Program-made: the position numbers and the translations under genes
Assembly (NCBI GenBank): GCA_902764545.1
Contig: CACWWC010000009.1
Coordinates: 5,540 to 69,539 of the forward strand
From: an uncultured Erysipelotrichaceae bacterium
Lineage (GTDB): Bacteria > Bacillota_I > Bacilli_A > RF39 > UBA660
Reading direction: 5' to 3'
Length of the DNA stretch: 64,000 nt
Notes under the pieces: generated by a model
Told to the model about the DNA's origin: nothing
The model's input: only the letters and a program-made list of their open reading frames with translations
Databases searched by the model: none
Shown: piece by piece, positions 4,016-43,624 of the stretch
Numbering within the stretch: the stretch's first letter is position 1
Layout: every line of letters begins with the position of its first letter

Positions 4016-6829
4016 TTATTGTTCTTTTATATATTGATAATTATCATCTTCAAACAATTTTCTATATTTGCCATCACTACCCTTATAATATGTATGCATT
4101 TCTTCATCATCTATTTCATACAAGTATTCTAGTATATTATCAAACTCGTTATCATTATAAAGAGTGTGTAGCCAGTCTACAGTTTGAAATAGCTGTTCGT
4201 TATGAGTAAGCTTATCAAAATTACTTCCAGCTCGTGCTTTAGCTATGGCTTTAACAACGTTAGTTGCCCAACTACCACTTCTATGATTAATTGCATATAT
4301 AGCGCCTGGAACTTCTTTAATAATTTGTCTTTTGTGATTTGATTCCAGTTCTTTTTGTTTACCTTGTAATATTAAATAATCCTCATATCTCATTACGTAT
4401 GTTGCATTATTTGTTGCGGTTCCTTTTTTCTTTTTTCTATTTTTAAAAAACCGTTCTGCAATAATTATTGCATCTTTTTTAATGTCATCTCCTAAACACT
4501 TTTCCTGAACTACATAGAAGTTATAGTTATAAAATGGATGTGTTTCGCCAAATTCACTGTATAGAACTTTTTTTGGTCTCCTTGCTTGTAACGCATTTAA
4601 AAAATCAATTCTTGCCTCTGGATCAATTACAGTATCTATATTTTGGTTTGATGGGTTTGATCCGGTTGTATTATTAATAGATTTTAATTCTCTTTTTTCC
4701 TTGATATTAGGTAGGTTTAGATCACTTTTAATGTTTGGAATATCATCATCATCAATAGTTGTAAGACCAATTAAGTTTCTTCCTACTCTTCTTTCTAATT
4801 CTTTAAGGTTCCTATTTCTAATAGTATTATAAGTGCTTTGCTTAATAATTCCATTTCTAAATAATTGTTTAGCTTCTTTTATAAATATATTTCTATTCTC
4901 AAATATTTTAATAATATTTTCATCGGAAATATATCTCTTGTTTATATAATTCATAAGTTCTTCATCGGTTAAAGTTGAACTTAATATACATTTTTCTAAA
5001 TAATTTCTATCAACCTTTTGGTATTTAAATAACTTTTCAATTTCTGTAATATCAATTATATTTTTTGTAAAGAGATTATTAATTACACTCTCTCCACCTA
5101 AATCAGCAACTGTTTCAAGAGAAATCAAACCATTTATGTAGTAAAAATATAAATCTTCTTCATCTTCTATATAATCGATCATATTTTCTTCAGTTTTTCT
5201 ATCAATTTCATTATTCTCACAATTAATAGCTTTATATACTGTTATTAAACTACTCAATTTGTCAGATTCATTAGAAAAATGCTTTGCATCTAAATATAAA
5301 CTGTTTATATTAGATAATGACACTTCATCTAATGTAAGCTCTCTTTTATATTGTTTAAAAAAATCTATTGATAACTTTCCTTGGTTATATAAATTTAAAA
5401 TTTCAGTACTGTTAGTTTTCTTTAACCTATATAATTCAATGATTGCTTCTTCTAATTTAAATATATTGTTAGATTGATATTTTTCTATAGCCTTGTTAAG
5501 TTTATAATTAAGTTTTATTACTACATAAATAAAATTATTTAGACTATAGTTCATTATACTTTCTAATTCTTCATTGGTAAGATATAACATTTCAAAAATA
5601 TTATTTTCAATAAAATCAACATTAATTTTACCTGATAACAATGCGCTTTTTATATAGTTCAGTTCTCTTTTTGATATATATTTTTTATACGACAATCTTT
5701 TTATGAGTTTATCTAAATCCATATTTGTAAATGTATCATTACTATCTTTATCAATAAATTCACATTTGGGATTTTTTAGATGTTTTTTCAATACTGTTAA
5801 TAATTTTAAATATTTATTATATAATTCTTGTTTTTGATCACTATCTGCATTGAGTTCTAATAATTCTTCGCATCTTTTTGCACAAATCAAGATAAATTTA
5901 TCAAAATCTAAATAATATGAAAAGTAATATATTTGATCTGTTAGCTCTTCTATAAAAGATGATATAGGTATGCTTTTATCAATACTTAAGAGAATATCTA
6001 GGTAATCTAAATCTTTTAGTCCTGTTTTTTTTGCATCATAATTTCTAAGGCTTATATTTTTTTTGCCTCTTTCTCCTAATCTTAGTCTATCTTGAATACA
6101 AATTATAATATGTTTTCCAATTTCTTCATTTAAAAATGATTCACAGATATCATCATATGATAACAATGTTATTAGCTCATTAAGTCCTTGAAAGTCATCT
6201 AGTGCATTACCAATTTCTATTAAAGAATCTTTATTTTTCTTCCAAGGTATTTTTTTATTCCTAAAAAGAACATTTGAATCTGCAAATTCTATTTCTCCTG
6301 TCTTTATGTAGATATTAGTATCTGGGATTATTCCTTGTATGTTTTTTCCGACTTTTACTAGTGAATCAAGTAATTTCCCATCAACAGCTTCACTTTGTTT
6401 GGCGTTTTTCATAACATCAAGTGTCTCATTAATGTTAGCTTGATTATTTTTAATTAATTCCTTTGTAATATCATATATTTTCTGATTCCCTTTTTTTGCT
6501 GTTGCACATAGTTTGGCAGCTGATAAAAGATATCTATTTGGGCTTATTTTGTCAGAATTATCAATTGCAAATTGCAATTCAGCTTTTGTTAAATCACTTA
6601 ATTCACCACTATTTTGTATGGCATGTGTATATTCTCTAATTAACTCTATATTATTACTACAAATATCAATGATATTATAAGCGGTCATTGTTGGACAGAC
6701 AATATACTGATAAAAGCTATCTAGGTCTATTTTTTTTGTTTTTTGTTTTTTGTCTAAAGTAATAAATTCTACTGCAACACTAGTTAATGTATTAATAATA
6801 TCCTTCTTTTTATCCTTTTCTTTTTCCAA
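4016..6829 (-). CDS. large hypothetical protein (937 aa)
   Basis: Uninterrupted 2.8-kb ORF with no recognisable catalytic motif. The C-terminal ~200 aa (…INHRSGSWATNVVKAIAKARAGSNF…) looks like a separate domain. Confidence 0.55.
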   Translation of the reverse strand: MEKEKDKKKDIINTLTSVAVEFITLDKKQKTKKIDLDSFYQYIVCPTMTAYNIIDICSNNIELIREYTHAIQNSGELSDLTKAELQFAIDNSDKISPNRYLLSAAKLCATAKKGNQKIYDITKELIKNNQANINETLDVMKNAKQSEAVDGKLLDSLVKVGKNIQGIIPDTNIYIKTGEIEFADSNVLFRNKKIPWKKNKDSLIEIGNALDDFQGLNELITLLSYDDICESFLNEEIGKHIIICIQDRLRLGERGKKNISLRNYDAKKTGLKDLDYLDILLSIDKSIPISSFIEELTDQIYYFSYYLDFDKFILICAKRCEELLELNADSDQKQELYNKYLKLLTVLKKHLKNPKCEFIDKDSNDTFTNMDLDKLIKRLSYKKYISKRELNYIKSALLSGKINVDFIENNIFEMLYLTNEELESIMNYSLNNFIYVVIKLNYKLNKAIEKYQSNNIFKLEEAIIELYRLKKTNSTEILNLYNQGKLSIDFFKQYKRELTLDEVSLSNINSLYLDAKHFSNESDKLSSLITVYKAINCENNEIDRKTEENMIDYIEDEEDLYFYYINGLISLETVADLGGESVINNLFTKNIIDITEIEKLFKYQKVDRNYLEKCILSSTLTDEELMNYINKRYISDENIIKIFENRNIFIKEAKQLFRNGIIKQSTYNTIRNRNLKELERRVGRNLIGLTTIDDDDIPNIKSDLNLPNIKEKRELKSINNTTGSNPSNQNIDTVIDPEARIDFLNALQARRPKKVLYSEFGETHPFYNYNFYVVQEKCLGDDIKKDAIIIAERFFKNRKKKKGTATNNATYVMRYEDYLILQGKQKELESNHKRQIIKEVPGAIYAINHRSGSWATNVVKAIAKARAGSNFDKLTHNEQLFQTVDWLHTLYNDNEFDNILEYLYEIDDEEMHTYYKGSDGKYRKLFEDDNYQYIKEQ

Positions 6830-32246: not shown

Positions 32247-32275
32247 AAAAAAAGCCATTATATTGGCTTTTTTTA
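32247..32275 (-). terminator. rho-independent terminator (GCCA-TTATAT-TGGC with T-run)
   Basis: Hairpin immediately after the stop of the 520-aa gene. Confidence 0.5.
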
Positions 32276-33835
32276 ATTAATATTAGCATTTATATTATTA
32301 ATTATATTATTTGTTTCTTGAAAGGCTATGTAATCACCATTATTTTTCCATTCACTATATTGTGTAGAATTCCACTCATCAAAACTTATCCATTCTCCAT
32401 CGTAATAAGTTCTTGTTGCATAGAAGTAATAATTTGAACTATTGTAATTTGATGTATAGAATGTTAAATCACAATATTGTGGTACATCCATATCTGAAGT
32501 TTGTTCTTGATCTTGACCTCTATTAAGTATCATCTTATCAAATTGATTTCTATTGAACTTAAATTGTACCGCTGAGCCTCCTGCAGATTCCGTAATAGAA
32601 CTTCCTGGCCAAGATCCATTGTTATTACCTGTTGCATTATTCCATAAATAATATTTTAAATTATGTTTATCTATGGTAAAAAATCTTACTTCATTTGAAT
32701 TGGCTCTATTAGGATAAATTTTAGGTACAAATATTTTTCCCCAATCATTTGATGTGAATTCTAGGTCTATGGTTTGTTTTCTTTTTATGTCATCATTTAA
32801 CCAAGTAATACTTGATTCTTTTCCATTAGTGAATATTATGTCAGTATAGTTTTCTAGGTATGATTCATTTATGGTATATTTGTATATATTTCTTTCATCA
32901 ATCTTAGTCATATCAATACCTGGCCAGACCATATATGCTGTTTCACTTGTTTTATTATATAAATACATTTTCACTGTGTAGTCTGATTCACTATCATCTT
33001 TATACCAATCTGGTGGCATTTGGAAATATATATTGTAGTTTTGATTATACTTTGCGTATAAAGTAATGTCTCCTGTTTTATTATTTAAGTTTGTTACTTT
33101 GTTGCCGCTGAATGTTGAATCTTCATACCAACCTACAAATGTTGCGTTTGTTTTGCTAGCATCTAGTATTTCAACAGTTTCTCCTTCTGCATAATATGTT
33201 GGCTGATTTTCTGCTTGAACTCCGCCGTTTAGTTCATACGTGATGTTATATAGTCTTGTAAATTTAAATTTAATTGTACCTGTTAAATTTCCATCTGTGA
33301 ATGTTTCATTATTATATTTATATTTTACAATGATATTTTTTGAGGATTTTTCTTCTATCAAATCTCCTATTCCAGTTGATGTATCATCAGTAATAACTTC
33401 TGGTACTATATCAGTGTTAGTATAGGCCCCAAGCTCCTCGTTTCCTGTTGTATCATATATAATTCCATCAAATCTATATTTAACATTATCAGTGTTTTTT
33501 ATTTCTACATTTAAAGATACTTCAGAGTCTTTATCTGCCAATATTATTTCGTTAGTTAATAATGTTTCAACATAATGATTAACTTTATATGAGGAATTTT
33601 CGCTCATACTTTCTAGTTTGACATCAGTTATTATTACACCGTCTTGTAAATCAAGTTCTAAATGCCCGTTTGCATATAAATTATATGTTGTTTGAGCAAA
33701 CGCTATTGTTGTAAATAGTAATCCTATAAAAACTATTGCAATTATTTTTGGTGATACCACTGTATTTCTTTTTCTTCTAATTTTTTTCAAATTATCACTC
33801 TCCTGTGTATGGTTCTGATGTAGCTTGAATTTCAA
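32273..33835 (-). CDS. secreted Asn/Tyr-rich protein (520 aa); last gene of the SipW-like operon
   Basis: Signal-like N-terminus …IAIVFIGLLFTTIAFAQTTYNLYANG resembles those of the small paralogs. Overlaps the upstream gene by 41 nt. Confidence 0.55.
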   Translation of the reverse strand: MKFKLHQNHTQESDNLKKIRRKRNTVVSPKIIAIVFIGLLFTTIAFAQTTYNLYANGHLELDLQDGVIITDVKLESMSENSSYKVNHYVETLLTNEIILADKDSEVSLNVEIKNTDNVKYRFDGIIYDTTGNEELGAYTNTDIVPEVITDDTSTGIGDLIEEKSSKNIIVKYKYNNETFTDGNLTGTIKFKFTRLYNITYELNGGVQAENQPTYYAEGETVEILDASKTNATFVGWYEDSTFSGNKVTNLNNKTGDITLYAKYNQNYNIYFQMPPDWYKDDSESDYTVKMYLYNKTSETAYMVWPGIDMTKIDERNIYKYTINESYLENYTDIIFTNGKESSITWLNDDIKRKQTIDLEFTSNDWGKIFVPKIYPNRANSNEVRFFTIDKHNLKYYLWNNATGNNNGSWPGSSITESAGGSAVQFKFNRNQFDKMILNRGQDQEQTSDMDVPQYCDLTFYTSNYNSSNYYFYATRTYYDGEWISFDEWNSTQYSEWKNNGDYIAFQETNNIINNINANIN

Positions 33836-34349
33836 TAGTTACGTCAGCACTTTTTTTACTGTCTGTTGGAACTTTTATAACTTTTCCTTTTATTGTAATG
33901 GTTGCATTTTTTCCAGGAGCTAATGTAGTTGTGTCATTTCCTTCTTCATCTTTTGTAATTTCCTCAACTTCAAAATATTCTGAATCACACGTTACATTTA
34001 TATTGAAATTAGCCGAAAAGTAGTTACTTTCATTTGCTATTGTATACTTTACTACTGCAGTATCTCCATATCCTTTCATACCCGTTACAGTAAACGATGC
34101 AGTTCTATTTGTTACATCATTACTGTCTAAATTTGCATCGATTGTCATATGACTTGGTTGATTTTCTGGGACTTCGACATCAACAAATTTTACTTTAAAA
34201 TCATCTGCAGATTTTATTCCTGTTGCACGGGCAGTTCCATTAATATTTAAAGTGATATTATTTATTTTAGCATATCCTATTGTTGCTATAGCAATAAGTA
34301 ATAATACTAATGTTAGTAGAAACATTTTATTATTAATTTTTTTTCTCAT
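33795..34349 (-). CDS. small secreted beta-rich protein B (184 aa), TasA/CalY-like candidate, paralog of 36854-37387
   Basis: Start set at MRKKINNK (GAAGGTGA RBS). Signal …LLLIAIATIGYAKINNITLNINGTARA parallels GIGYATINSIPLIINGTATA of the paralog. Confidence 0.55.
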   Translation of the reverse strand: MRKKINNKMFLLTLVLLLIAIATIGYAKINNITLNINGTARATGIKSADDFKVKFVDVEVPENQPSHMTIDANLDSNDVTNRTASFTVTGMKGYGDTAVVKYTIANESNYFSANFNINVTCDSEYFEVEEITKDEEGNDTTTLAPGKNATITIKGKVIKVPTDSKKSADVTIEIQATSEPYTGE

Positions 34350-34400
34350 TTTATCACCTTCTATAATGGAATAAATAGACATTTTTATAATGCCTATTAA

Positions 34401-35669
34401 TTATTTTTTAAATTTATATTCAGCTGTCTTATCTAATTGTTCATAAAGATCTTCATCAGAATTTTTAGTACCCATGATGGCATTTTTATCATCTAGAATT
34501 TCTATTTCTGTTGTATTTTTTATATCTTCATTTATTTTATCGATTGTATAGAATTTTTGTACAGGTCTTTGGTTGGTAATGTCTCTTGCATCGTAATCTG
34601 GAGCTTTTGTCCCCCTAATTTCTGATTCAATATCTACTACTCTAATTGCGTATGTATAAATTACCCCGTCTTCTACAGGAATAAGGAAATATGTTCCAGT
34701 TTTTTCTTTGTTTTCAAGCATTAGTAGTGGTTTTTCTGATGATTCTTTGATTTCAATCATATCTTGAAAACTTTCTACCTTACATATTTGTGATGCACCT
34801 AATGGGTAATCTCCGCTTATTTTTTGAATATATGAGTCATATGCTAGAGTTATTTTTTTAATTCTATTTTCATAAATATCTTGTACTGTTCTAGTTTTCT
34901 TAATATATCTATTAATTAAAACAAACATAACTATTGAACATATTATAAATATTATTCCTGTTATTAATATTAAAATATAATTTTTATCAGGTTTTACTAG
35001 TATTCTACTATCGTTTGAATTAAGAGATGTTCCACTTATATCAACATTAACTGTTTTTGTGGTTAATGGTATTGTAATACTACTTTTAGCATTACTAATT
35101 TTAGATAAATCTATATTCTGATGTGTATTTAGATTTCTGACATTAACATCCATTGATACTTTTAATGTATTTGTTGTTTGTGATAAATCATAAGTACTAA
35201 TAAAACTGCTTAACAAATTATTATATTTATTATAATCAATATCAATATTATAATTTATATTCATTCCATTTTTAGTTATTTTATCTTCTGATGTATATAA
35301 TACTTCATTTTTTGTAAATAAAACTTTATCATTGTCACCATCTGTTACATTAAATTCAGCAATTATTCTATAATTATATGAATACTCAATTCCACTTTGA
35401 AGATCTAACTTATAATTAAAGTTTGCAGGTATATAATCAATTAATGATGCAACATATTGATTACCTCTTTCAATGCACTTAGATTCATAGAAATTATTGT
35501 CTTTTAAACATACACTATAATTAACATTACTATCTTCTTGATAATTAATGTAGTGTCCATTACTTAGTATTTTAAACATTAACAGCGAAAATACACCTAC
35601 TACTAAAAGAATTGTAGGCAATAAGTATAAATTTTTAATATTGATTTTTTCTTTTTTATTATGATTCAT
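34401..35669 (-). CDS. two-TM membrane protein (422 aa) with an extracellular Asn-rich domain and a cytoplasmic C-terminal domain
   Basis: TM at residues ~15-35 and ~232-254. Sits between the peptidase gene and secreted protein B. Confidence 0.5.
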   Translation of the reverse strand: MNHNKKEKINIKNLYLLPTILLVVGVFSLLMFKILSNGHYINYQEDSNVNYSVCLKDNNFYESKCIERGNQYVASLIDYIPANFNYKLDLQSGIEYSYNYRIIAEFNVTDGDNDKVLFTKNEVLYTSEDKITKNGMNINYNIDIDYNKYNNLLSSFISTYDLSQTTNTLKVSMDVNVRNLNTHQNIDLSKISNAKSSITIPLTTKTVNVDISGTSLNSNDSRILVKPDKNYILILITGIIFIICSIVMFVLINRYIKKTRTVQDIYENRIKKITLAYDSYIQKISGDYPLGASQICKVESFQDMIEIKESSEKPLLMLENKEKTGTYFLIPVEDGVIYTYAIRVVDIESEIRGTKAPDYDARDITNQRPVQKFYTIDKINEDIKNTTEIEILDDKNAIMGTKNSDEDLYEQLDKTAEYKFKK

Positions 35670-35672
35670 AAT

Positions 35673-36812
35673 TTAACCTCTCTTTACTCTTTCAAAAAAC
35701 TCATTAATCCATATCGTTGGTTGTCCAATTTTTGCTATTTTTAATTTAACTTTTCCTTTGAATGTTTTTCTTGTAACATATCCTGAATCCTGTTGTATAT
35801 TATTGTCACCTTTTGTATATAATCTTATTTCATCATTTATATCTTCTATTTTTACCACTCTATGAACAATAATTTTTGTATTGGTTGAATATAAAATGAT
35901 ATCCCCTTTTTTTATATCTTTTATATCTTTTGAATTTTTATAAATTATTGCATCTCCTTTATCAAGTGTTCCTGTCATCGAGCCTGAGCCTATCACTAGC
36001 ATTCCATATGTAAATTTGCATGATATTAACATTGCGACTATTGCCATTATTACAATACTTATTATTGTTGAGGCCGCTTTTAATTTTCGATTATGTACTG
36101 TTATTACTTTTTTATCTTTTTCATATACACTCTTTAAAACAATATATATTAATAATGGATAAAGCATTCTACATACTGATTTGAAATATATGTATACATC
36201 AGGAGTAAATGGTATTATATATAAATATATTGTTGTAATAATCCTGTAAATGATATTGGGTACAATCCCAAATTCTTCTGATATATAGTTGAAAAGGATG
36301 TTTGATACAATTGATGCAAAAAATATATAGCCTATTGCTTCTAAAAATTCATTTAAATTGAATATATTGTAAATATTAACATACATTACTAAATCAACTA
36401 GTACAGTAAAGATTAGTGTATTTATTCTTGAAGCATTTGTCTTTTCAGATAAAAATTCATTTCTAATTATTTCAGATGTAATTATTATCAATATTGAAGG
36501 AATAATATAATTTATTATTGTATGAATTCCAAATTTGTAGGCCGACACATAATAACCCACATATATTCCAATTACATAATATAGTACAACATATAGAATA
36601 GCAAATATGGTCATATATTTTGTAATATCTTTTTTATATATTGAGGATTGGTGTGTTCTACTAATTATCTTTCTTGTGATAAATGCATATAGGACTAAAA
36701 TTAATGCAATAAGCATTTTATTGGTTAAAACTTTTGATGTAATTAGAATACTTACAAAAAATATAATTATAAATAATTGTAATGCATATATTTTGTATAA
36801 CCCCTTTTTCAT
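35673..36812 (-). CDS. signal peptidase I, SipW-type (S26B), with a ~245-aa polytopic N-terminal extension
   Basis: The C-terminal 130 aa has GSGSMTGTLDKGD (catalytic Ser) and IIVHRVV (His) and is colinear with SipW/archaeal-type SPase I. It is preceded by 7-8 predicted TM helices of unknown function. Confidence 0.7.
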   Translation of the reverse strand: MKKGLYKIYALQLFIIIFFVSILITSKVLTNKMLIALILVLYAFITRKIISRTHQSSIYKKDITKYMTIFAILYVVLYYVIGIYVGYYVSAYKFGIHTIINYIIPSILIIITSEIIRNEFLSEKTNASRINTLIFTVLVDLVMYVNIYNIFNLNEFLEAIGYIFFASIVSNILFNYISEEFGIVPNIIYRIITTIYLYIIPFTPDVYIYFKSVCRMLYPLLIYIVLKSVYEKDKKVITVHNRKLKAASTIISIVIMAIVAMLISCKFTYGMLVIGSGSMTGTLDKGDAIIYKNSKDIKDIKKGDIILYSTNTKIIVHRVVKIEDINDEIRLYTKGDNNIQQDSGYVTRKTFKGKVKLKIAKIGQPTIWINEFFERVKRG

Positions 36813-36853
36813 AACTTTACTCCTTTTTATGTTTTATTAATTCACGGAGTTTA

Positions 36854-37387
36854 TTAATTTACTGGACTTGCTACTAATCTTGTTGTAATAATTGATTCTT
36901 GATTATTTTCTATTGGTGTTTTTACTACCTCAACTTCTATTGCAAGTGTTGTTGTTGCACCAGCATCCAATAATGTTTTATTTTGATTGTTAGCATCAGG
37001 TGTTCCAAACGTTCTAGTAACTTTGAAATACTCCGCATTTGTATTAGAAGTTCCATCATTTGAAATTTCTATTTCTGCATTTAATCCAGTTGATGAATTT
37101 GTAATATTGAAAATAATTATTGCTTTATCGCCTACTGCCGTTAAATCTTTTGTGGTAAAACTTGCACTTAAACCTTTTGAGATAGGTTCAGGATCAAGCA
37201 CAATATTTTGCGGTCCATCTTGATAACCATTAAATTCTACTTTAAAGTTGTTTTGATTTGGGGAAGCAGTTGCGGTACCATTTATAATTAATGGTATTGA
37301 ATTAATCGTGGCATAACCGATACCCAAAACAATTACAGCGATTAGTGCATATAATGCGATGGATAGACTTTTGCTTTTGTGATTCAC
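36854..37387 (-). CDS. small secreted beta-rich protein A (177 aa), TasA/CalY-like candidate
   Basis: GTG start with an AAAGGA RBS. Signal peptide …LGIGYATINSIPLIINGTATA. First gene of the operon. Confidence 0.55.
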   Translation of the reverse strand: MNHKSKSLSIALYALIAVIVLGIGYATINSIPLIINGTATASPNQNNFKVEFNGYQDGPQNIVLDPEPISKGLSASFTTKDLTAVGDKAIIIFNITNSSTGLNAEIEISNDGTSNTNAEYFKVTRTFGTPDANNQNKTLLDAGATTTLAIEVEVVKTPIENNQESIITTRLVASPVN

Positions 37388-37555
37388 CTTAAATCAATCC
37401 TTTCTCTCTATAATTATTTTTCCTATTATCTATTTAATGATACCAAATTTTATAATTTTTGTATATTATTTTTGAAATTTTTGTCGTAAAATTATACTTT
37501 TTGTTGAAGATTTGGATAATATACTCAATAATAATTGATTAAAGGAGTGGTAAGT

Positions 37556-37903
37556 ATGAAAAATAAAAATGCTTATGACAATAATAGAGATTTTATCAAC
37601 AAGATTTTTGATAGATCTGATAATCCGATTGAGGAATTAGAGAGGATTAATAGCGTTGTTCCAATATTTTTTATTGATGAGAATAACATAAACTATATTA
37701 ATGAAGGGTTAGATAAATATGGCTATGAAATCAATCCAAATTATATTTCTGATGTGAAATCACAGTGTCAAATGTATGGTTACCCTGCTTGTGGTGGTGG
37801 CGGTATAGGACATTCTTCTTGTTGTAGTTCACTAAATATTGATAAGCCGTTATTATTGGTAAAAAAGAATAATGGTGGTATTGAAAATGGAATTAGATAT
37901 TAA
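37556..37903 (+). CDS. Cys-rich small protein (115 aa); candidate precursor/partner of the adjacent radical SAM enzyme
   Basis: AAAGGAGTGG RBS. C-terminal QCQMYGYPACGGGGIGHSSCCSS cluster. The 3' end overlaps the radical SAM ORF by 32 nt in another frame. Confidence 0.45.
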   Translation: MKNKNAYDNNRDFINKIFDRSDNPIEELERINSVVPIFFIDENNINYINEGLDKYGYEINPNYISDVKSQCQMYGYPACGGGGIGHSSCCSSLNIDKPLLLVKKNNGGIENGIRY

Positions 37904-38363
37904 AGGAAAAAAATATAATATTAAACCCTATGCCTGTTCTCCCTGTGATGAATTTCCTTTTTATATAAATATTACTAATGTATGTAATGCAAAGTGTAGT
38001 TTTTGTTCTAACGCTTGTAATAAAGATTATGGTAAATTAGACTTAAATTACTTAGAGGAAATTTTAGAACAAATCAGCAATAATATAAGTAGATTCTCTA
38101 TTAGTGGTTGTGAAACACTATTATATCCAAATGATTTAGAAGATTTACTTAAATTATTACAAAAATATGATAGAAGAATAACTTTAAATACTAATGGTAG
38201 TTTTTTAAAAGAGAATGTTGAAATGCTAAATAAATATAATAATATTGAATCTATTCAGCTAAGTAGACATCATTACATCGATGAAAAAAATAATGAAGTA
38301 TTCAATATAGAGACTTTACCTTTTAGTGAATTGAATAAAAAAACTAACCTATTTCTTGATTAG
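37872..38363 (+). CDS. radical SAM protein, minimal activase-like (163 aa)
   Basis: CNAKCSFCSN is a CX3CX2C motif, followed by a SAM-binding-like ISGCETLL. No SPASM domain. Confidence 0.6.
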   Translation: MVVLKMELDIKGKKYNIKPYACSPCDEFPFYINITNVCNAKCSFCSNACNKDYGKLDLNYLEEILEQISNNISRFSISGCETLLYPNDLEDLLKLLQKYDRRITLNTNGSFLKENVEMLNKYNNIESIQLSRHHYIDEKNNEVFNIETLPFSELNKKTNLFLD

Positions 38364-38669: not shown

Positions 38670-40151
38670 ATGAAAGAGGTATGTTTTAAAAATATTATAT
38701 ATGATGATGGTGTTTTAATAGATTGTACATTGAATAATTCAGGTACTTATTCTTTAGGTATTCCAGTAATATCTAAGGAATTTATAGAAATGTATGAAAA
38801 TAATGATTTACGAATTAAAAAAGGTAATACTATCAATGATGCATATGAATATTTTAAAGAGAATCATTTGATGGATGCTAATCTTATTATTATGCCAAAC
38901 AACCAAATAATTTTTAATCTTAATTCAAAATCAGTAATGCCAAAAATAAATGGTGAACCTATTTATATATCTAAATCAGATATTATTAAAGGAAATAATT
39001 ATTGGTATATTGAACTACATGAAGGTAATTCTGTAAAATATGAAAAAACTTACTTAGGGGATAAAAAATATAGAGGTCAAAAATGTGATTATTATTCTTT
39101 CGTTTTAGTAACAGAGTATCAAGTAGATGGTAAAGAAATGCATAAAATCATTCATAGAGATAAAACAAATTATTTGTATAGTGAGTATAATCCTAGTAAA
39201 TTAGACCTGATTATCGACCAAGCAAAAACATTATTGGAATCTCATGACTATAAATTTAAAGATTTTAGTGGAGTTACACCACTTTATAGATTTAATTCTG
39301 AAGATAGCGCATGTGTCTTTATGGATAATAAATCATTAATAACGGGACAAAATGTTGTTACAGTTACAGGAAGTGGTGATGCAATTTTAGATTTATTTAT
39401 GAATGGTGCAAAAAAAATAGTATCATTTGATATTAATTCTATGGCTGCATTTTGGGCAGAATTAAAATTTGTTGCTGCAAAATATCTAAATTATCAAGAT
39501 TATTTAAATTTAATTAATAATCTTAATTATGATATATATAGTAAGATAAGTTATTATTTAAACCCTAATACAAAAAAATTATGGGACGAATTATATAATT
39601 TTTGTGATTTAAGAGAAATAAGAATTGATGGAGAACAATCCAATTTGATATACCACACATCATTTTTAAGTTTTGATTATTCACAAGATAATCTTAATGG
39701 ATACTGCAATGAAGATAATTATTATAGATTACAAAAAATATTAAGTAACAAATCTATTAGTGATGTTAGTTTTGTTACATGTGATATATTTGATTTACCA
39801 AATTCAGCAGATTTAAGCAACTATTCATATGCTTATTTGTCAAATATAATGGATTTTCTTGTAGGTATTGACAAATTAGAAATTGACGAAAGTGCCGTAG
39901 AAAAATTTAAAGATTTTGTTTCTCAATCCTTATTACCATCAATGAAAGAAGATGCCAATATAGATTTGTGTTATATATCTGAAAATTGGCATTTAGGTAA
40001 ATCTAAAAAAATCTATTCTGAAAAATTTTCAGAATATGAAGGATATCGTAAGACACCTTTATCAAATACTAATTGTAAAGCTTGTGTATTATCATTTAGA
40101 TCATATCTAAGAAAAAATTATATACAAAGTACCAGTTCACATAAAAAATAA
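38670..40151 (+). CDS. hypothetical protein (493 aa), possibly with a Rossmann-like nucleotide/SAM-binding segment
   Basis: GGAGG RBS upstream. The VVTVTGSGDAILDLF segment resembles motif I of class I methyltransferases and DUF3419/BtaA-like proteins. Confidence 0.45.
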   Translation: MKEVCFKNIIYDDGVLIDCTLNNSGTYSLGIPVISKEFIEMYENNDLRIKKGNTINDAYEYFKENHLMDANLIIMPNNQIIFNLNSKSVMPKINGEPIYISKSDIIKGNNYWYIELHEGNSVKYEKTYLGDKKYRGQKCDYYSFVLVTEYQVDGKEMHKIIHRDKTNYLYSEYNPSKLDLIIDQAKTLLESHDYKFKDFSGVTPLYRFNSEDSACVFMDNKSLITGQNVVTVTGSGDAILDLFMNGAKKIVSFDINSMAAFWAELKFVAAKYLNYQDYLNLINNLNYDIYSKISYYLNPNTKKLWDELYNFCDLREIRIDGEQSNLIYHTSFLSFDYSQDNLNGYCNEDNYYRLQKILSNKSISDVSFVTCDIFDLPNSADLSNYSYAYLSNIMDFLVGIDKLEIDESAVEKFKDFVSQSLLPSMKEDANIDLCYISENWHLGKSKKIYSEKFSEYEGYRKTPLSNTNCKACVLSFRSYLRKNYIQSTSSHKK

Positions 40152-42319: not shown

Positions 42320-43624
42320 ATGATAGATGTAATTGAAGATGTAAGAAATGAATTTAAAGTTAAATTAACAGATAAGTTTGAAGAAGAAGTTATATCATTT
42401 TTGAATACTAATGGTGGTAATATCTACATTGGTGTTAATGATAAAGGTGATATTGTTGGAATAAATGGTAATATTGATTTATTACAAAGGACTATTAAGG
42501 ATAGAATAAAAGATAATATAATGCCATCAACATTAGGATTATATGATGTTGTTGTATTGGAAGAAAACAATAAAAAATATATTAAAATAATTATTGCTCG
42601 TGGTAGTGATGATCCATATTACATTAAAGGTATGGGAATGACACTAGATAGTTGCTTTATTAGAGTTGGTAGTTCAATACAAAGTATGCCTTATGATATG
42701 ATTAATAATAGAGTTAATAAAAGAACTAGGACATCATTAAGGAATATAGTATCCCCTAAACAAGATTTAACTTTTAGTCAATTAAAAATATATTATGAAG
42801 AAAAAGGTTTTAATATTAATAATAATTTTTTAAAGCAATTAGACTTATATACTGATGATGGTAAATATAATTATAATGCTTATTTACTTGCTGACAATAA
42901 TACAATATCTATTAGATTTGGAAAATATGAAGGAACAAATGCTGTTGATTTAATAGAAAATGAAGATTTTGGTAATTGTTCTATTGTTAAAGCAACAAAG
43001 AATATTTTAAATAAGATAGAAATAGAAAATAGGATATTTACAAAAATAGAATACCCTGAAAGAAAAGAAATTAAAATGTATGATTTTGCCGCAGTAAGAG
43101 AAGCAGTTGTTAATGCAATTGTACATAATGATTGGTCTAACGAATATGCTCCAAAATTTGAAATGTTTAGTGATAAATTAGTAATATCATCAAATGGTGG
43201 TATTCAACCATCTACTACAAAAGAAGAATTTTTAGAGGGATATTCATTACCTAAAAATAAAGAACTAATGAAAGTATTTAATGATTTAGATTTAGTTGAA
43301 CAAATGGGTACAGGTATAATAAGAATACTTCAAAGTTATGATAAAAAATCATTTGAATTTTTTCCTAATTTTATTAGAGTTACATTTCCATTTAATAAAG
43401 ATAAATTTAGAGAAGAAGCAAAAGAAATTACCGAATTAACTGAAACTCAAAAATCTATTATTAATTTAATGTTAGATTCACCAACTATTACACAAGAGGT
43501 GTTGTCAAAACTATTAGGTGTTAATATTAGAACTATTCAAAGAAATATAAAAACACTTATTGAAATGGGATTAATTGAAAGAACTGGTGCTACTAAAAAA
43601 GGTGAATGGATAGTAAAAAAATAA
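42320..43624 (+). CDS. AlbA_2/Schlafen-like putative ATP-dependent DNA-binding regulator with a C-terminal winged HTH
   Basis: N-terminal …EEVISFLNTNGGNIYIGVNDKGDIVGI is the AlbA_2 (divergent AAA-4) signature. A HATPase_c_4-like middle region. The C-terminal TQEVLSKLLGVNIRTIQRNIKTLIEMGLIER is a wHTH. Confidence 0.6.
   Translation: MIDVIEDVRNEFKVKLTDKFEEEVISFLNTNGGNIYIGVNDKGDIVGINGNIDLLQRTIKDRIKDNIMPSTLGLYDVVVLEENNKKYIKIIIARGSDDPYYIKGMGMTLDSCFIRVGSSIQSMPYDMINNRVNKRTRTSLRNIVSPKQDLTFSQLKIYYEEKGFNINNNFLKQLDLYTDDGKYNYNAYLLADNNTISIRFGKYEGTNAVDLIENEDFGNCSIVKATKNILNKIEIENRIFTKIEYPERKEIKMYDFAAVREAVVNAIVHNDWSNEYAPKFEMFSDKLVISSNGGIQPSTTKEEFLEGYSLPKNKELMKVFNDLDLVEQMGTGIIRILQSYDKKSFEFFPNFIRVTFPFNKDKFREEAKEITELTETQKSIINLMLDSPTITQEVLSKLLGVNIRTIQRNIKTLIEMGLIERTGATKKGEWIVKK

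Follow-up and report, generated by a model that had tools for sequence, protein, structure and literature searches.

The stretch of DNA analysed here (64,000 nucleotides of contig CACWWC010000009.1, from an uncultured Erysipelotrichaceae bacterium; hereafter the window) carries, between positions 32273 and 37387, a cluster of five genes that we interpret as an operon for surface fibres or adhesins, independent of sortase and of the AbpX/Tafi/TasA type, a reading to which we give a probability of about 0.58. In gene order, the cluster encodes a small secreted protein (A), a signal peptidase I (SPase I), a membrane protein with two transmembrane (TM) helices, a second small secreted protein (B) and a large secreted protein of 505 amino acids (aa). 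The candidate roles are those of major fibre subunit for A, of minor or adaptor subunit for B and of tip adhesin for the 505-aa protein. We infer that these products form fibres, which would polymerise by donor-strand complementation. The five open reading frames (ORFs) run in the same direction, with transcription from 37387 to 32273, and are separated in gene order by gaps of 41, 3, 51 and 4 nt; an initial annotation of this DNA had described five co-directional, tightly spaced genes, and the ORFs were found where it had placed them, all on the minus strand.

The tie between this cassette and experimentally studied fibre loci, Tafi and AbpX, is provided by the third gene. Its product belongs to DUF5305 (PF17231, E 3.5e-12; 46.7 bits against a gathering threshold, GA, of 29), a membership that had gone unnoticed in the initial annotation. 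Read from the sequence, the protein has a first TM helix at about residues 15–35, an Asn-rich extracellular domain, a second TM helix at about residues 231–254 and a cytoplasmic C-terminal domain of about 165 aa. In Haloarcula, the fibre subunits, the signal peptidase TafD and the DUF5305 protein TafG are encoded together; TafG has been proposed as the partner of TafD, and deletion of tafD leaves TafA unprocessed and leads to loss of the fibres (PMC11821415). Sec-dependent versions of this system, with DUF1102 subunits of 150–200 aa and a two-domain tip protein, are present in Thermococcales and Archaeoglobales (PMC11821415), and assembly by strand donation has been established by cryo-electron microscopy for Natrinema TafE (PMC12337348). 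AbpX-like loci in archaea, Bacillota and Chloroflexota encode major and minor subunits, tip proteins, DUF5305 and a dedicated SPase I, the last with ten TM helices rather than two (10.64898/2026.01.04.697558). By this profile match, the 422-aa protein is the homologue of TafG, the proposed accessory subunit of a signal peptidase. The initial annotation had seen no equivalent of the membrane partner in the Bacillus operons and had considered the cassette possibly undescribed; the view of a partner without a known equivalent and of an undescribed cassette is out of date, as DUF5305 partners have been published for Tafi and AbpX-like loci, and so have loci that combine SPase I, DUF5305 and subunits (PMC11821415, PMC12337348, 10.64898/2026.01.04.697558).

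The second gene encodes a signal peptidase of the endoplasmic reticulum (ER)/archaeal type. It matches TIGR02228 with 81.1 bits (cut-off 51.85), and its nearest solved relatives by sequence profile are human SEC11C/A (E 3e-17), with bacterial SpsB at E 2.6. Its earlier description as a SipW-type SPase I is borne out as regards the ER/archaeal type, but the protein stays below the cut-off of the Bacillus SipW equivalog NF046067 (50.7 bits against 190). S278 (in GSGSM), H317-R318 and D336/N338/D342 (GDxNxxxD) are invariant in 38 homologues; with its catalytic Ser, His and Asp thus retained, the protein is expected to be an active enzyme. The top 120 homologues are all long-form proteins of 344–387 aa, mostly 370–387 aa, and a peptidase identical to that of the window is encoded on ENA metagenome scaffolds. 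In the AlphaFold2 (AF2) model of the window protein there are nine TM helices and a C-terminal helix, and the catalytic domain is C-terminal, following eight extra helices; the approximately 235 extra N-terminal residues were absent from the initial annotation.

By its predicted fold, this N-terminal domain is an eight-TM CPBP domain. Its best structural match is Staphylococcus aureus SpdC (LyrA), which we take to be a non-catalytic CPBP scaffold. The residues conserved in the 38 homologues are E114 and R117 (S-E-x-x-R in TM4, presumably the place of CPBP motif 1), D140, N171, N175 and R190. None of the His residues of the domain is conserved among these homologues; the CPBP motifs FxxxH and HxxxN are therefore missing, and of EExxxR only S-E114-x-x-R117 is kept. 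A Pfam match to CPBP was found in none of the 38 at E<=1. Compared with the CPBP/CAAX family (Rce1, SpdC, myxosortase), the window domain is thus without a Pfam match or the canonical catalytic motifs, and it is fused to a signal peptidase. A targeted full-text literature search found no description of a fusion between CPBP and signal peptidase, and the main text of the AbpX preprint does not mention a CPBP/CAAX fold (10.64898/2026.01.04.697558).

A and B are paralogues, as had been proposed (30% identity over 165 aa, E 1e-16), and B matches the profile of the subunit family with E 9e-56. Both have Lys-rich n-regions without a twin-arginine motif, and the mature cargo proteins are acidic (pI 4.4–4.6). 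The layout of A consists of a signal or anchor helix, the motif G-I-G-Y-A (residues 22–26), a conserved alternating strand (28–41), the motif NFxVxF, a linker and a beta-sandwich core. The AF2 model, with a predicted local distance difference test score (pLDDT) of 71.7 overall and 82–87 in the core, places the signal helix at residues 6–22 and a strand at 31–41, followed by a low-confidence linker of variable length (53–72) and the beta-sandwich. The cut is predicted to fall after G-Y-A because G24 (-3) and A26 (-1) obey the signal-peptidase rule, and A would thus be cleaved after A26. With the cut marked by a slash, the site in A reads ..VLGIGYA/TINSIPLIINGTATA and the tag of B TIGYA/KINNITLNINGTARA. 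The site in A parallels that of AbpX, ..GLTYA/QWSE (AbpX sequence from the preprint supplement), or in its wider context ..TAIGLTYA/QWSETLSLSATISTGSLDV; in both A and AbpX, Tyr-Ala stands ahead of the proposed cut and is followed by an amphipathic strand with Gly. A similar parallel is presumably offered by TasA, with ..GTWA/AFND.

The conservation of this tag carries much of the argument. Within an alignment of 108 family members that are only about 30–45% identical, Y25 and A26 are each present in 106 and G37 in 107; G22, G24, Y25 and A26 are kept in 97–106 members, and L33, I35, G37, A39 and A41 in 84–107. The resulting pattern is G-[IV]-G-Y-A, followed by the alternating strand L-x-I-x-G-x-A-x-A. 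Nowhere is the family more conserved than at residues 22–28, which carry 3.57 bits per column; the figure for the rest of the mature protein is 2.18. The suggestion that the tag reflects recognition by a specific peptidase is strengthened by this result, since generic Sec signals would not conserve such a tag. The N-terminal motif that the initial annotation had seen in A, B and the last protein is confirmed for A, B and the family at large (Y25 and A26 in 106 of 108), well beyond what chance would give, whereas the last protein has only a degenerate copy. Tag and following strand are near-identical in the small and large subunit classes despite their diverged cores, and conservation runs 15 residues past the cleavage site across these diverged classes. 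A strand that is conserved across classes beyond what cleavage needs fits docking into partner subunits, which is the main argument for insertion in trans; we infer that the strand of A pairs in this way. The combination of a flexible linker (53–72) with a conserved alternating strand (28–41) is likewise compatible with donor-strand complementation.

The family alignment also shows that N97 and K156 are nearly invariant and that residue 119 (E119 in A) is commonly acidic. As an idea only, N97/E119/K156 could be an isopeptide triad like those of BsaA or the archaeal threads.

The subunit family is large. In a profile search of 1.84 billion cluster representatives (50%-identity clusters), it comprised 3970 clusters at E<=1e-3, 1581 at E<=1e-10 and 316 at E<=1e-30; the picture of a tiny family, drawn from 12 word-index matches to A, was overturned by this full scan. 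About two thirds of the best 150 matches are 160–200 aa long, and the remainder, of 203–744 aa, carry the subunit domain at the N-terminus. Many family members have 250–800 aa with the subunit domain first, and in the longer members scanned it is followed by adhesin-type modules (BspA-type leucine-rich repeats, LRR; DUF6273). Traceable sources are metagenomes or metagenome-assembled genomes (MAGs) of the rumen, ruminant gut and human gut, labelled Erysipelotrichaceae, Bacilli, 'Tenericutes', Clostridia or Eubacteriales; among the species-representative genomes scanned, the closest relative of A is in an uncultured Erysipelotrichaceae MAG (locus L003). Searches of the family profile against PDB, Pfam and NCBIfam returned no named family and no solved relative. 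Weak matches to CARDB, DUF1573, DUF11 and choice-of-anchor D indicate an immunoglobulin (Ig)-like sandwich only. With thousands of clusters and no Pfam or NCBIfam model, the family is therefore invisible to annotation.

The gene order of the cassette recurs elsewhere. Related loci (35) were fetched via the subunit motif, with a search alignment of eight closer sequences. The long peptidase (371–384 aa) directly follows the small subunit in 27 of them, and in 24 of these 27 the next gene encodes DUF5305; many of these loci then continue with a protein of 408–542 aa whose first approximately 100 residues match the subunit profile. L003 also has a B-like fourth gene. The cassette begins with the gene for the stand-alone subunit domain, which is also its most constant member, and the view of the cluster as a dedicated cassette is upheld by the position of the peptidase right after the small subunit in 27 of 35 loci.

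Two of the genomes reached in this way have further features. The Clostridia MAG RGIG6403 contains at least six loci (L005, L007, L009, L010, L011 and L014) with tagged genes of 389–805 aa, single or in tandem arrays of up to four. A 744-aa tagged protein from this MAG, the sole one scanned against Pfam, has BspA-type leucine-rich repeats after the subunit domain. No peptidase was present within the 8-kb flanks fetched around these arrays, and the loci look like a many-substrate regulon. In L001 (4571-6734 and 9340-9864), a second DUF5305 gene (340 aa) occurs on the same contig, and the gene before it encodes a small secreted protein that lacks the GYA tag; in addition, a standard short LepB-type peptidase is encoded beside rplS, just upstream of the cassette.

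The large subunit of the window differs from A to the extent that BLAST found no similarity between the two. Its approximately 230 N-terminal residues nevertheless match the profile of the large genes that follow DUF5305 elsewhere (E 6e-19, HMMER filters off), and the motifs that this pilin-like N-domain has in common with the orthologues include QDGVFITDV, given as QDGVIITDV for the window protein; orthologues of the large subunit in other loci carry a canonical IGYAAINSIT.EI.G motif. By this match, the 505-aa protein is the orthologue of the large protein whose conserved gene comes after DUF5305 in other loci. Its C-terminal part contains a Listeria-Bacteroides repeat and two CBM26-type modules (Table 1). 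The match of the first CBM26 module was obtained with residues 285–340 scanned as a separate segment and was not reported by the whole-protein scan. The CBM26 modules suggest that the putative fibre binds starch.

Comparison with described systems reveals a mosaic of likenesses and differences. AbpX loci (Pyrodictium abyssi; Thermoproteota, Bacillota and Chloroflexota) resemble the present cassette in having a TIGR02228-type peptidase with about ten TM helices, an adjacent DUF5305 gene, a major and minor subunit(s) (about 150–165 mature residues, low pI) and a larger tip protein. They differ in the residues after the cut, which in AbpX are aromatic at +2 and acidic at +4 and in the window family I, V or L at +2. 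Unlike AbpX loci, the cassette has no LPXTG or S-layer homology (SLH) anchor, histidine kinase or cyclic di-GMP genes nearby, and the hosts of this cassette type are uncultured gut and rumen Bacillota. If the cut falls after G-Y-A, the AbpX-type context is absent: +2 is I, V or L (80, 17 and 6 of 108, respectively), and +4 is not among the columns conserved at >=60%. With no aromatic +2 and no conserved acidic +4, calcium-triggered assembly is therefore not implied. Aligned as whole proteins with hhalign, for which the AbpX query consisted of the sequence from the preprint supplement and five homologues found by search, A and AbpX give P 2–4e-4 and a probability of 37–49%; this signal stems from the signal peptide, and membership of A in the AbpX cluster is not claimed.

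Tafi loci also have a signal peptidase I gene beside a DUF5305 gene, with two to three pilin-like proteins of 150–200 aa and a multi-domain tip candidate. TafD differs in having four TM helices and an N-terminal peptidase domain, whereas the window peptidase has eight extra helices first; haloarchaeal Tafi subunits use twin-arginine translocation (Tat) signals, whereas A and B lack the twin-arginine. No sequence match to DUF1102 or Tafi was found for A or B. The operons tapA-sipW-tasA, sipW-calY and Clostridium perfringens sipW-bsaA-bsaB-bsaC place an ER-type peptidase beside fibre cargo, as the present cassette does for its putative fibre cargo, and likewise combine paralogous subunits with a larger accessory secreted protein; in the Bacillus and C. 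perfringens systems, the N-terminal strand of the cargo is donated to the next subunit. SipW is short and without a CPBP-like domain, and SipW operons as described are without DUF5305, whereas the present cassette has both.

The cargo of the SipW systems is also of another family. TasA, CalY and BsaA are members of Peptidase_M73/TasA, to which neither A nor B shows a match, and the cassette has no TapA and no identified isopeptide triad. The initial annotation had considered the cargo TasA- or camelysin-like, a suggestion that finds no backing in matches to M73/TasA, the SipW-cognate signal or a specific TasA fold. At E<=1, Peptidase_M73/TasA matched neither A nor B nor the large protein, and it lies outside the 25 families commonest among the 108 members, and a profile search of PDB sequences returned no TasA at E<=10. 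The SipW-cognate signal TIGR04088 matched none of the three cargo proteins at E<=1 in NCBIfam release 20.0 (in which we assume the model to be included) and does not figure in the top 25 NCBIfam families by number of matches among the 108 members. The model of A has no fold similarity specific to the solved TasA structure, and no specific link by fold to the AbpX or Tafi subunits emerged either. In a Foldseek search of PDB with this model, the best matches are donor-strand pilins (EcpA, DaaE, AfaE and a type-1 fimbrial subunit), but they are weak (E 3e-3 or worse, TM-scores 0.28–0.34) and the matches as a whole are generic Ig-like; we do not accept this weak enrichment as proof. Like A, the chaperone-usher pilins (EcpA, Dr/Afa, type 1) have Ig-like subunits and an alternating hydrophobic N-terminal extension, in which a Gly is conserved. 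They differ in belonging to another envelope and in requiring a periplasmic chaperone and an outer-membrane usher, and no homology to A is claimed.

On these grounds, we propose the following model. A, B and the 505-aa protein would be exported by Sec and remain tethered to the membrane by the signal helix. The peptidase and its DUF5305 accessory would recognise the G-[IV]-G-[YF]-A tag and cut after it, with the histidine-less CPBP-like domain probably serving as a platform for substrate docking and specificity and not as a protease. Cleavage would free the amphipathic strand L-x-I-x-G-x-A-x-A, which would then insert into the beta-sandwich of a neighbour by donor-strand complementation. A would make up most of the fibre, B would be a minor or adaptor component and the large protein an adhesin presenting its starch-binding modules. 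A more general proposal extends the model to the whole family: GYA-tagged proteins may be widespread, unrecognised pili of Gram-positive gut bacteria, that is, sortase-independent and chaperone-free donor-strand fibres with interchangeable adhesins, matured and assembled by an ER-type peptidase fused to a degenerate CAAX-fold domain, which together with DUF5305 forms the platform. We advance this extension tentatively, at somewhat less than even odds.

Several observations weigh against a fibre. In the AF2 model of the monomer, the N-terminal strand of A is packed into its own sandwich, in cis, where it may be no more than strand A of an ordinary Ig-like domain. Without the signal peptide, the hhalign comparison of A with AbpX gives P 0.048, within the range of column shuffles. 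A weak match to the NCBIfam Ig-like domain 'choice-of-anchor D' is found in 25 of the 108 members, which points to a common surface-protein module and not to the TasA jelly roll. The tag of the large subunit is degenerate (IAFA/QTTYNLYANGH), the operon contains no cell-wall anchor, TapA-like factor or regulator, and co-transcription of the five genes is suggested solely by their spacing and the terminal hairpin.

Some of these observations would also suit a dedicated maturation or sorting system that makes no fibre, in which a private signal peptidase cleaves a tagged regulon of surface or secreted proteins (Ig-like stalks with adhesin or CBM modules), as in other pairs of sorting signal and enzyme, the products are monomeric, and A and B are small Ig-domain proteins. 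The cis position of the strand in the AF2 model favours such a system, as do the weak matches of the core to choice-of-anchor D and ASH-like Ig domains and the one-enzyme-many-substrates look of a Clostridia MAG with at least six tagged LRR loci and no peptidase within 8 kb. The stand-alone subunit as the most constant gene of the cassette would, however, be hard to explain unless its product is structural. The 15 conserved residues past the cut, shared across diverged subunit classes, also argue for a fibre, as do the Tafi fibres seen experimentally in Natrinema and Haloarcula, among the published loci of the Tafi and AbpX-like types in which DUF5305 is encoded beside a signal peptidase. We consider sorting without a fibre, the chief rival of our model, unlikely, though it deserves to be taken seriously. 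A related proposal is that of two-step or covalent sorting, in which the CPBP-like domain is active and, together with the fused peptidase, either breaks down the released signal peptide or passes the cargo to an acceptor, lipid or cell-wall, in the manner of myxosortase (MYXO-CTERM). Among the 38 homologues, the polar intramembrane residues E114, R117, D140, N171, N175 and R190 vary little or not at all, and a CPBP enzyme has been documented as a sorting protease (PMC11980579). The missing conserved His, with the loss of FxxxH and HxxxN, and the lack of any CPBP match at the sequence level nevertheless make this improbable, and the cargo shows no sign of an anchoring signal or acceptor. SpdC, the best structural match, presumably being a non-catalytic scaffold, also speaks against an active domain.

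The remaining explanations concern the peptidase reaction and the gene cluster itself. If the signal anchor were left uncleaved, the peptidase-like protein might act as a chaperone, like Streptococcus pyogenes SipA, which is needed for polymerisation of a sortase pilus. SipA is not known to possess the catalytic Ser, His and Asp residues, whereas Ser278, His317 and both Asp are invariant in the window family; G-Y-A obeys the -3/-1 rule, and the operon has neither a sortase nor an LPXTG motif, all of which renders a chaperone role very improbable. The sole point in favour of chance neighbours with ordinary LepB-type signals is that a hydrophobic core, with small residues at -3 and -1, is found in generic signal peptides as well. 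The recurrence of the gene order in 27 independent loci from different MAG lineages, and a tag more conserved than the mature protein, leave this explanation with hardly any credibility. A surface fibre or adhesin system thus remains our preferred reading.

Table 1. Features of the putative fibre cassette and its borders, in the order of transcription
Feature	Position	Strand	Details
Upstream intergenic region	37388..37534	(-)	AT-rich; divergent from a gene on the + strand; ribosome-binding site (RBS) AGAAAGGA; operon promoter presumed
Gene A	36854-37387	(-)	177 aa; GTG start, AGAAAGGA RBS ahead
A, signal peptide	37310..37387	(-)	Residues 1-26; predicted cut after G-Y-A
A, candidate donor strand	37265..37309	(-)	TINSIPLIINGTATA; L33, I35, G37, A39 and A41 alternate and are nearly invariant
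Peptidase gene	35673-36812	(-)	379 aa; AAGGAG RBS
Peptidase, N-terminal domain	36108..36812	(-)	About aa 1-235; 8 TM helices, CPBP/CAAX-protease fold (predicted)
Peptidase, anchor helix and signal peptidase I domain	35673..36098	(-)	aa 239-379; ER/archaeal type
Two-TM (DUF5305) gene	34401-35669	(-)	422 aa; start 3 nt past the peptidase stop
Gene B	33795..34349	(-)	184 aa; longest ORF 195 aa
Large-subunit gene	32273..33790	(-)	505 aa from TTG 33790; longest ORF 520 aa
Large subunit, Flg_new (Listeria-Bacteroides repeat)	33050..33250	(-)	PF09479 E 1.7e-13; TIGR02543 E 8.4e-7
Large subunit, CBM26 starch-binding module	32816..32983	(-)	PF16738 E 1.3e-8; 35.2 bits against GA 28.1
Large subunit, second divergent CBM26-like repeat	32447..32650	(-)	YLWN..WPG..IT; BLASTP against the first copy E 7e-4; without a Pfam match of its own
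Terminator-like hairpin and T-run	32247..32272	(-)	AAAAAGCCA-ATATAA-TGGCTTTTTTT; directly 3' of the last stop; read from sequence

The gene starts in Table 1 were chosen with regard to ribosome-binding sites. B is taken as 184 aa and not 195 because GAAGGTGA lies 5 nt ahead of the ATG at 34349, in agreement with the length proposed previously. The last protein had been given as 520 aa, which is indeed the longest ORF, but the likely start gives 505 aa, because GGAGAG precedes the TTG at 33790 and identical public contigs are called with 505 aa. A consensus terminator scan skipped the hairpin at 32247-32272 because its G+C stem is short; the gene past the operon has a promoter-like site of its own (TTGCAA-17-TATAAT, 32232-32204). 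The promoter of the operon was not located, as promoter-like hexamers are no commoner than in shuffled sequence and the scan is uninformative in such AT-rich DNA, and an Rfam search found no regulatory RNA element. The window averages about 26% G+C and contains the housekeeping genes dnaE, glmS, bipA and iPGM, which identifies it as chromosomal and its source as a low-GC bacterium; no match was obtained when plasmids were searched with the peptidase.

Other parts of the window show features of their own. Divergent from the operon, the region 37535-38363 (+) contains a 122-aa ORF with a Cys/Gly-rich stretch (CGGGGIGHSSCCSS), which is overlapped by a 163-aa radical-SAM fragment; a DUF3419 protein then follows at 38670-40151. 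Gene calls for 37535-38363 disagree among identical public contigs, and a radical-SAM gene that has decayed or been frameshifted might explain the region, as might a peptide-modification pair. At 42320-43624 (+), in a patch of reversed GC skew (38-44 kb), lies the gene for a protein that combines Schlafen AlbA_2, HATPase_c_4 and helix-turn-helix domains; it may be part of an inserted segment. At 4016-6829 (-), a 937-aa ORF without a Pfam match adjoins a 1052-aa fused ABC-ATPase/FtsX-permease protein.

With regard to novelty, the type of cassette, its membrane partner and the many-helix peptidase have already been described (2025-26). What appears to be new is the very large, unannotated subunit family of gut and rumen Bacillota, the adhesin-fused forms of the subunit, including a tip with CBM26 modules, and the predicted CPBP fold of the extra domain of the peptidase. 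The peptidase should be useful for the broader question of how dedicated ER-type signal peptidases select their cargo, as a CPBP-fold domain and a DUF5305 partner, attached to a SEC11-like catalytic domain, make up a bacterial analogue, in simple form, of the signal peptidase complex that eukaryotes build from several subunits. Should the fibre model be true, many uncultured Bacillota of the gut and rumen would possess a third route to surface filaments, besides sortase and type IV pili, and would equip these filaments with swappable adhesin modules, of which those encoded in the window would target starch.

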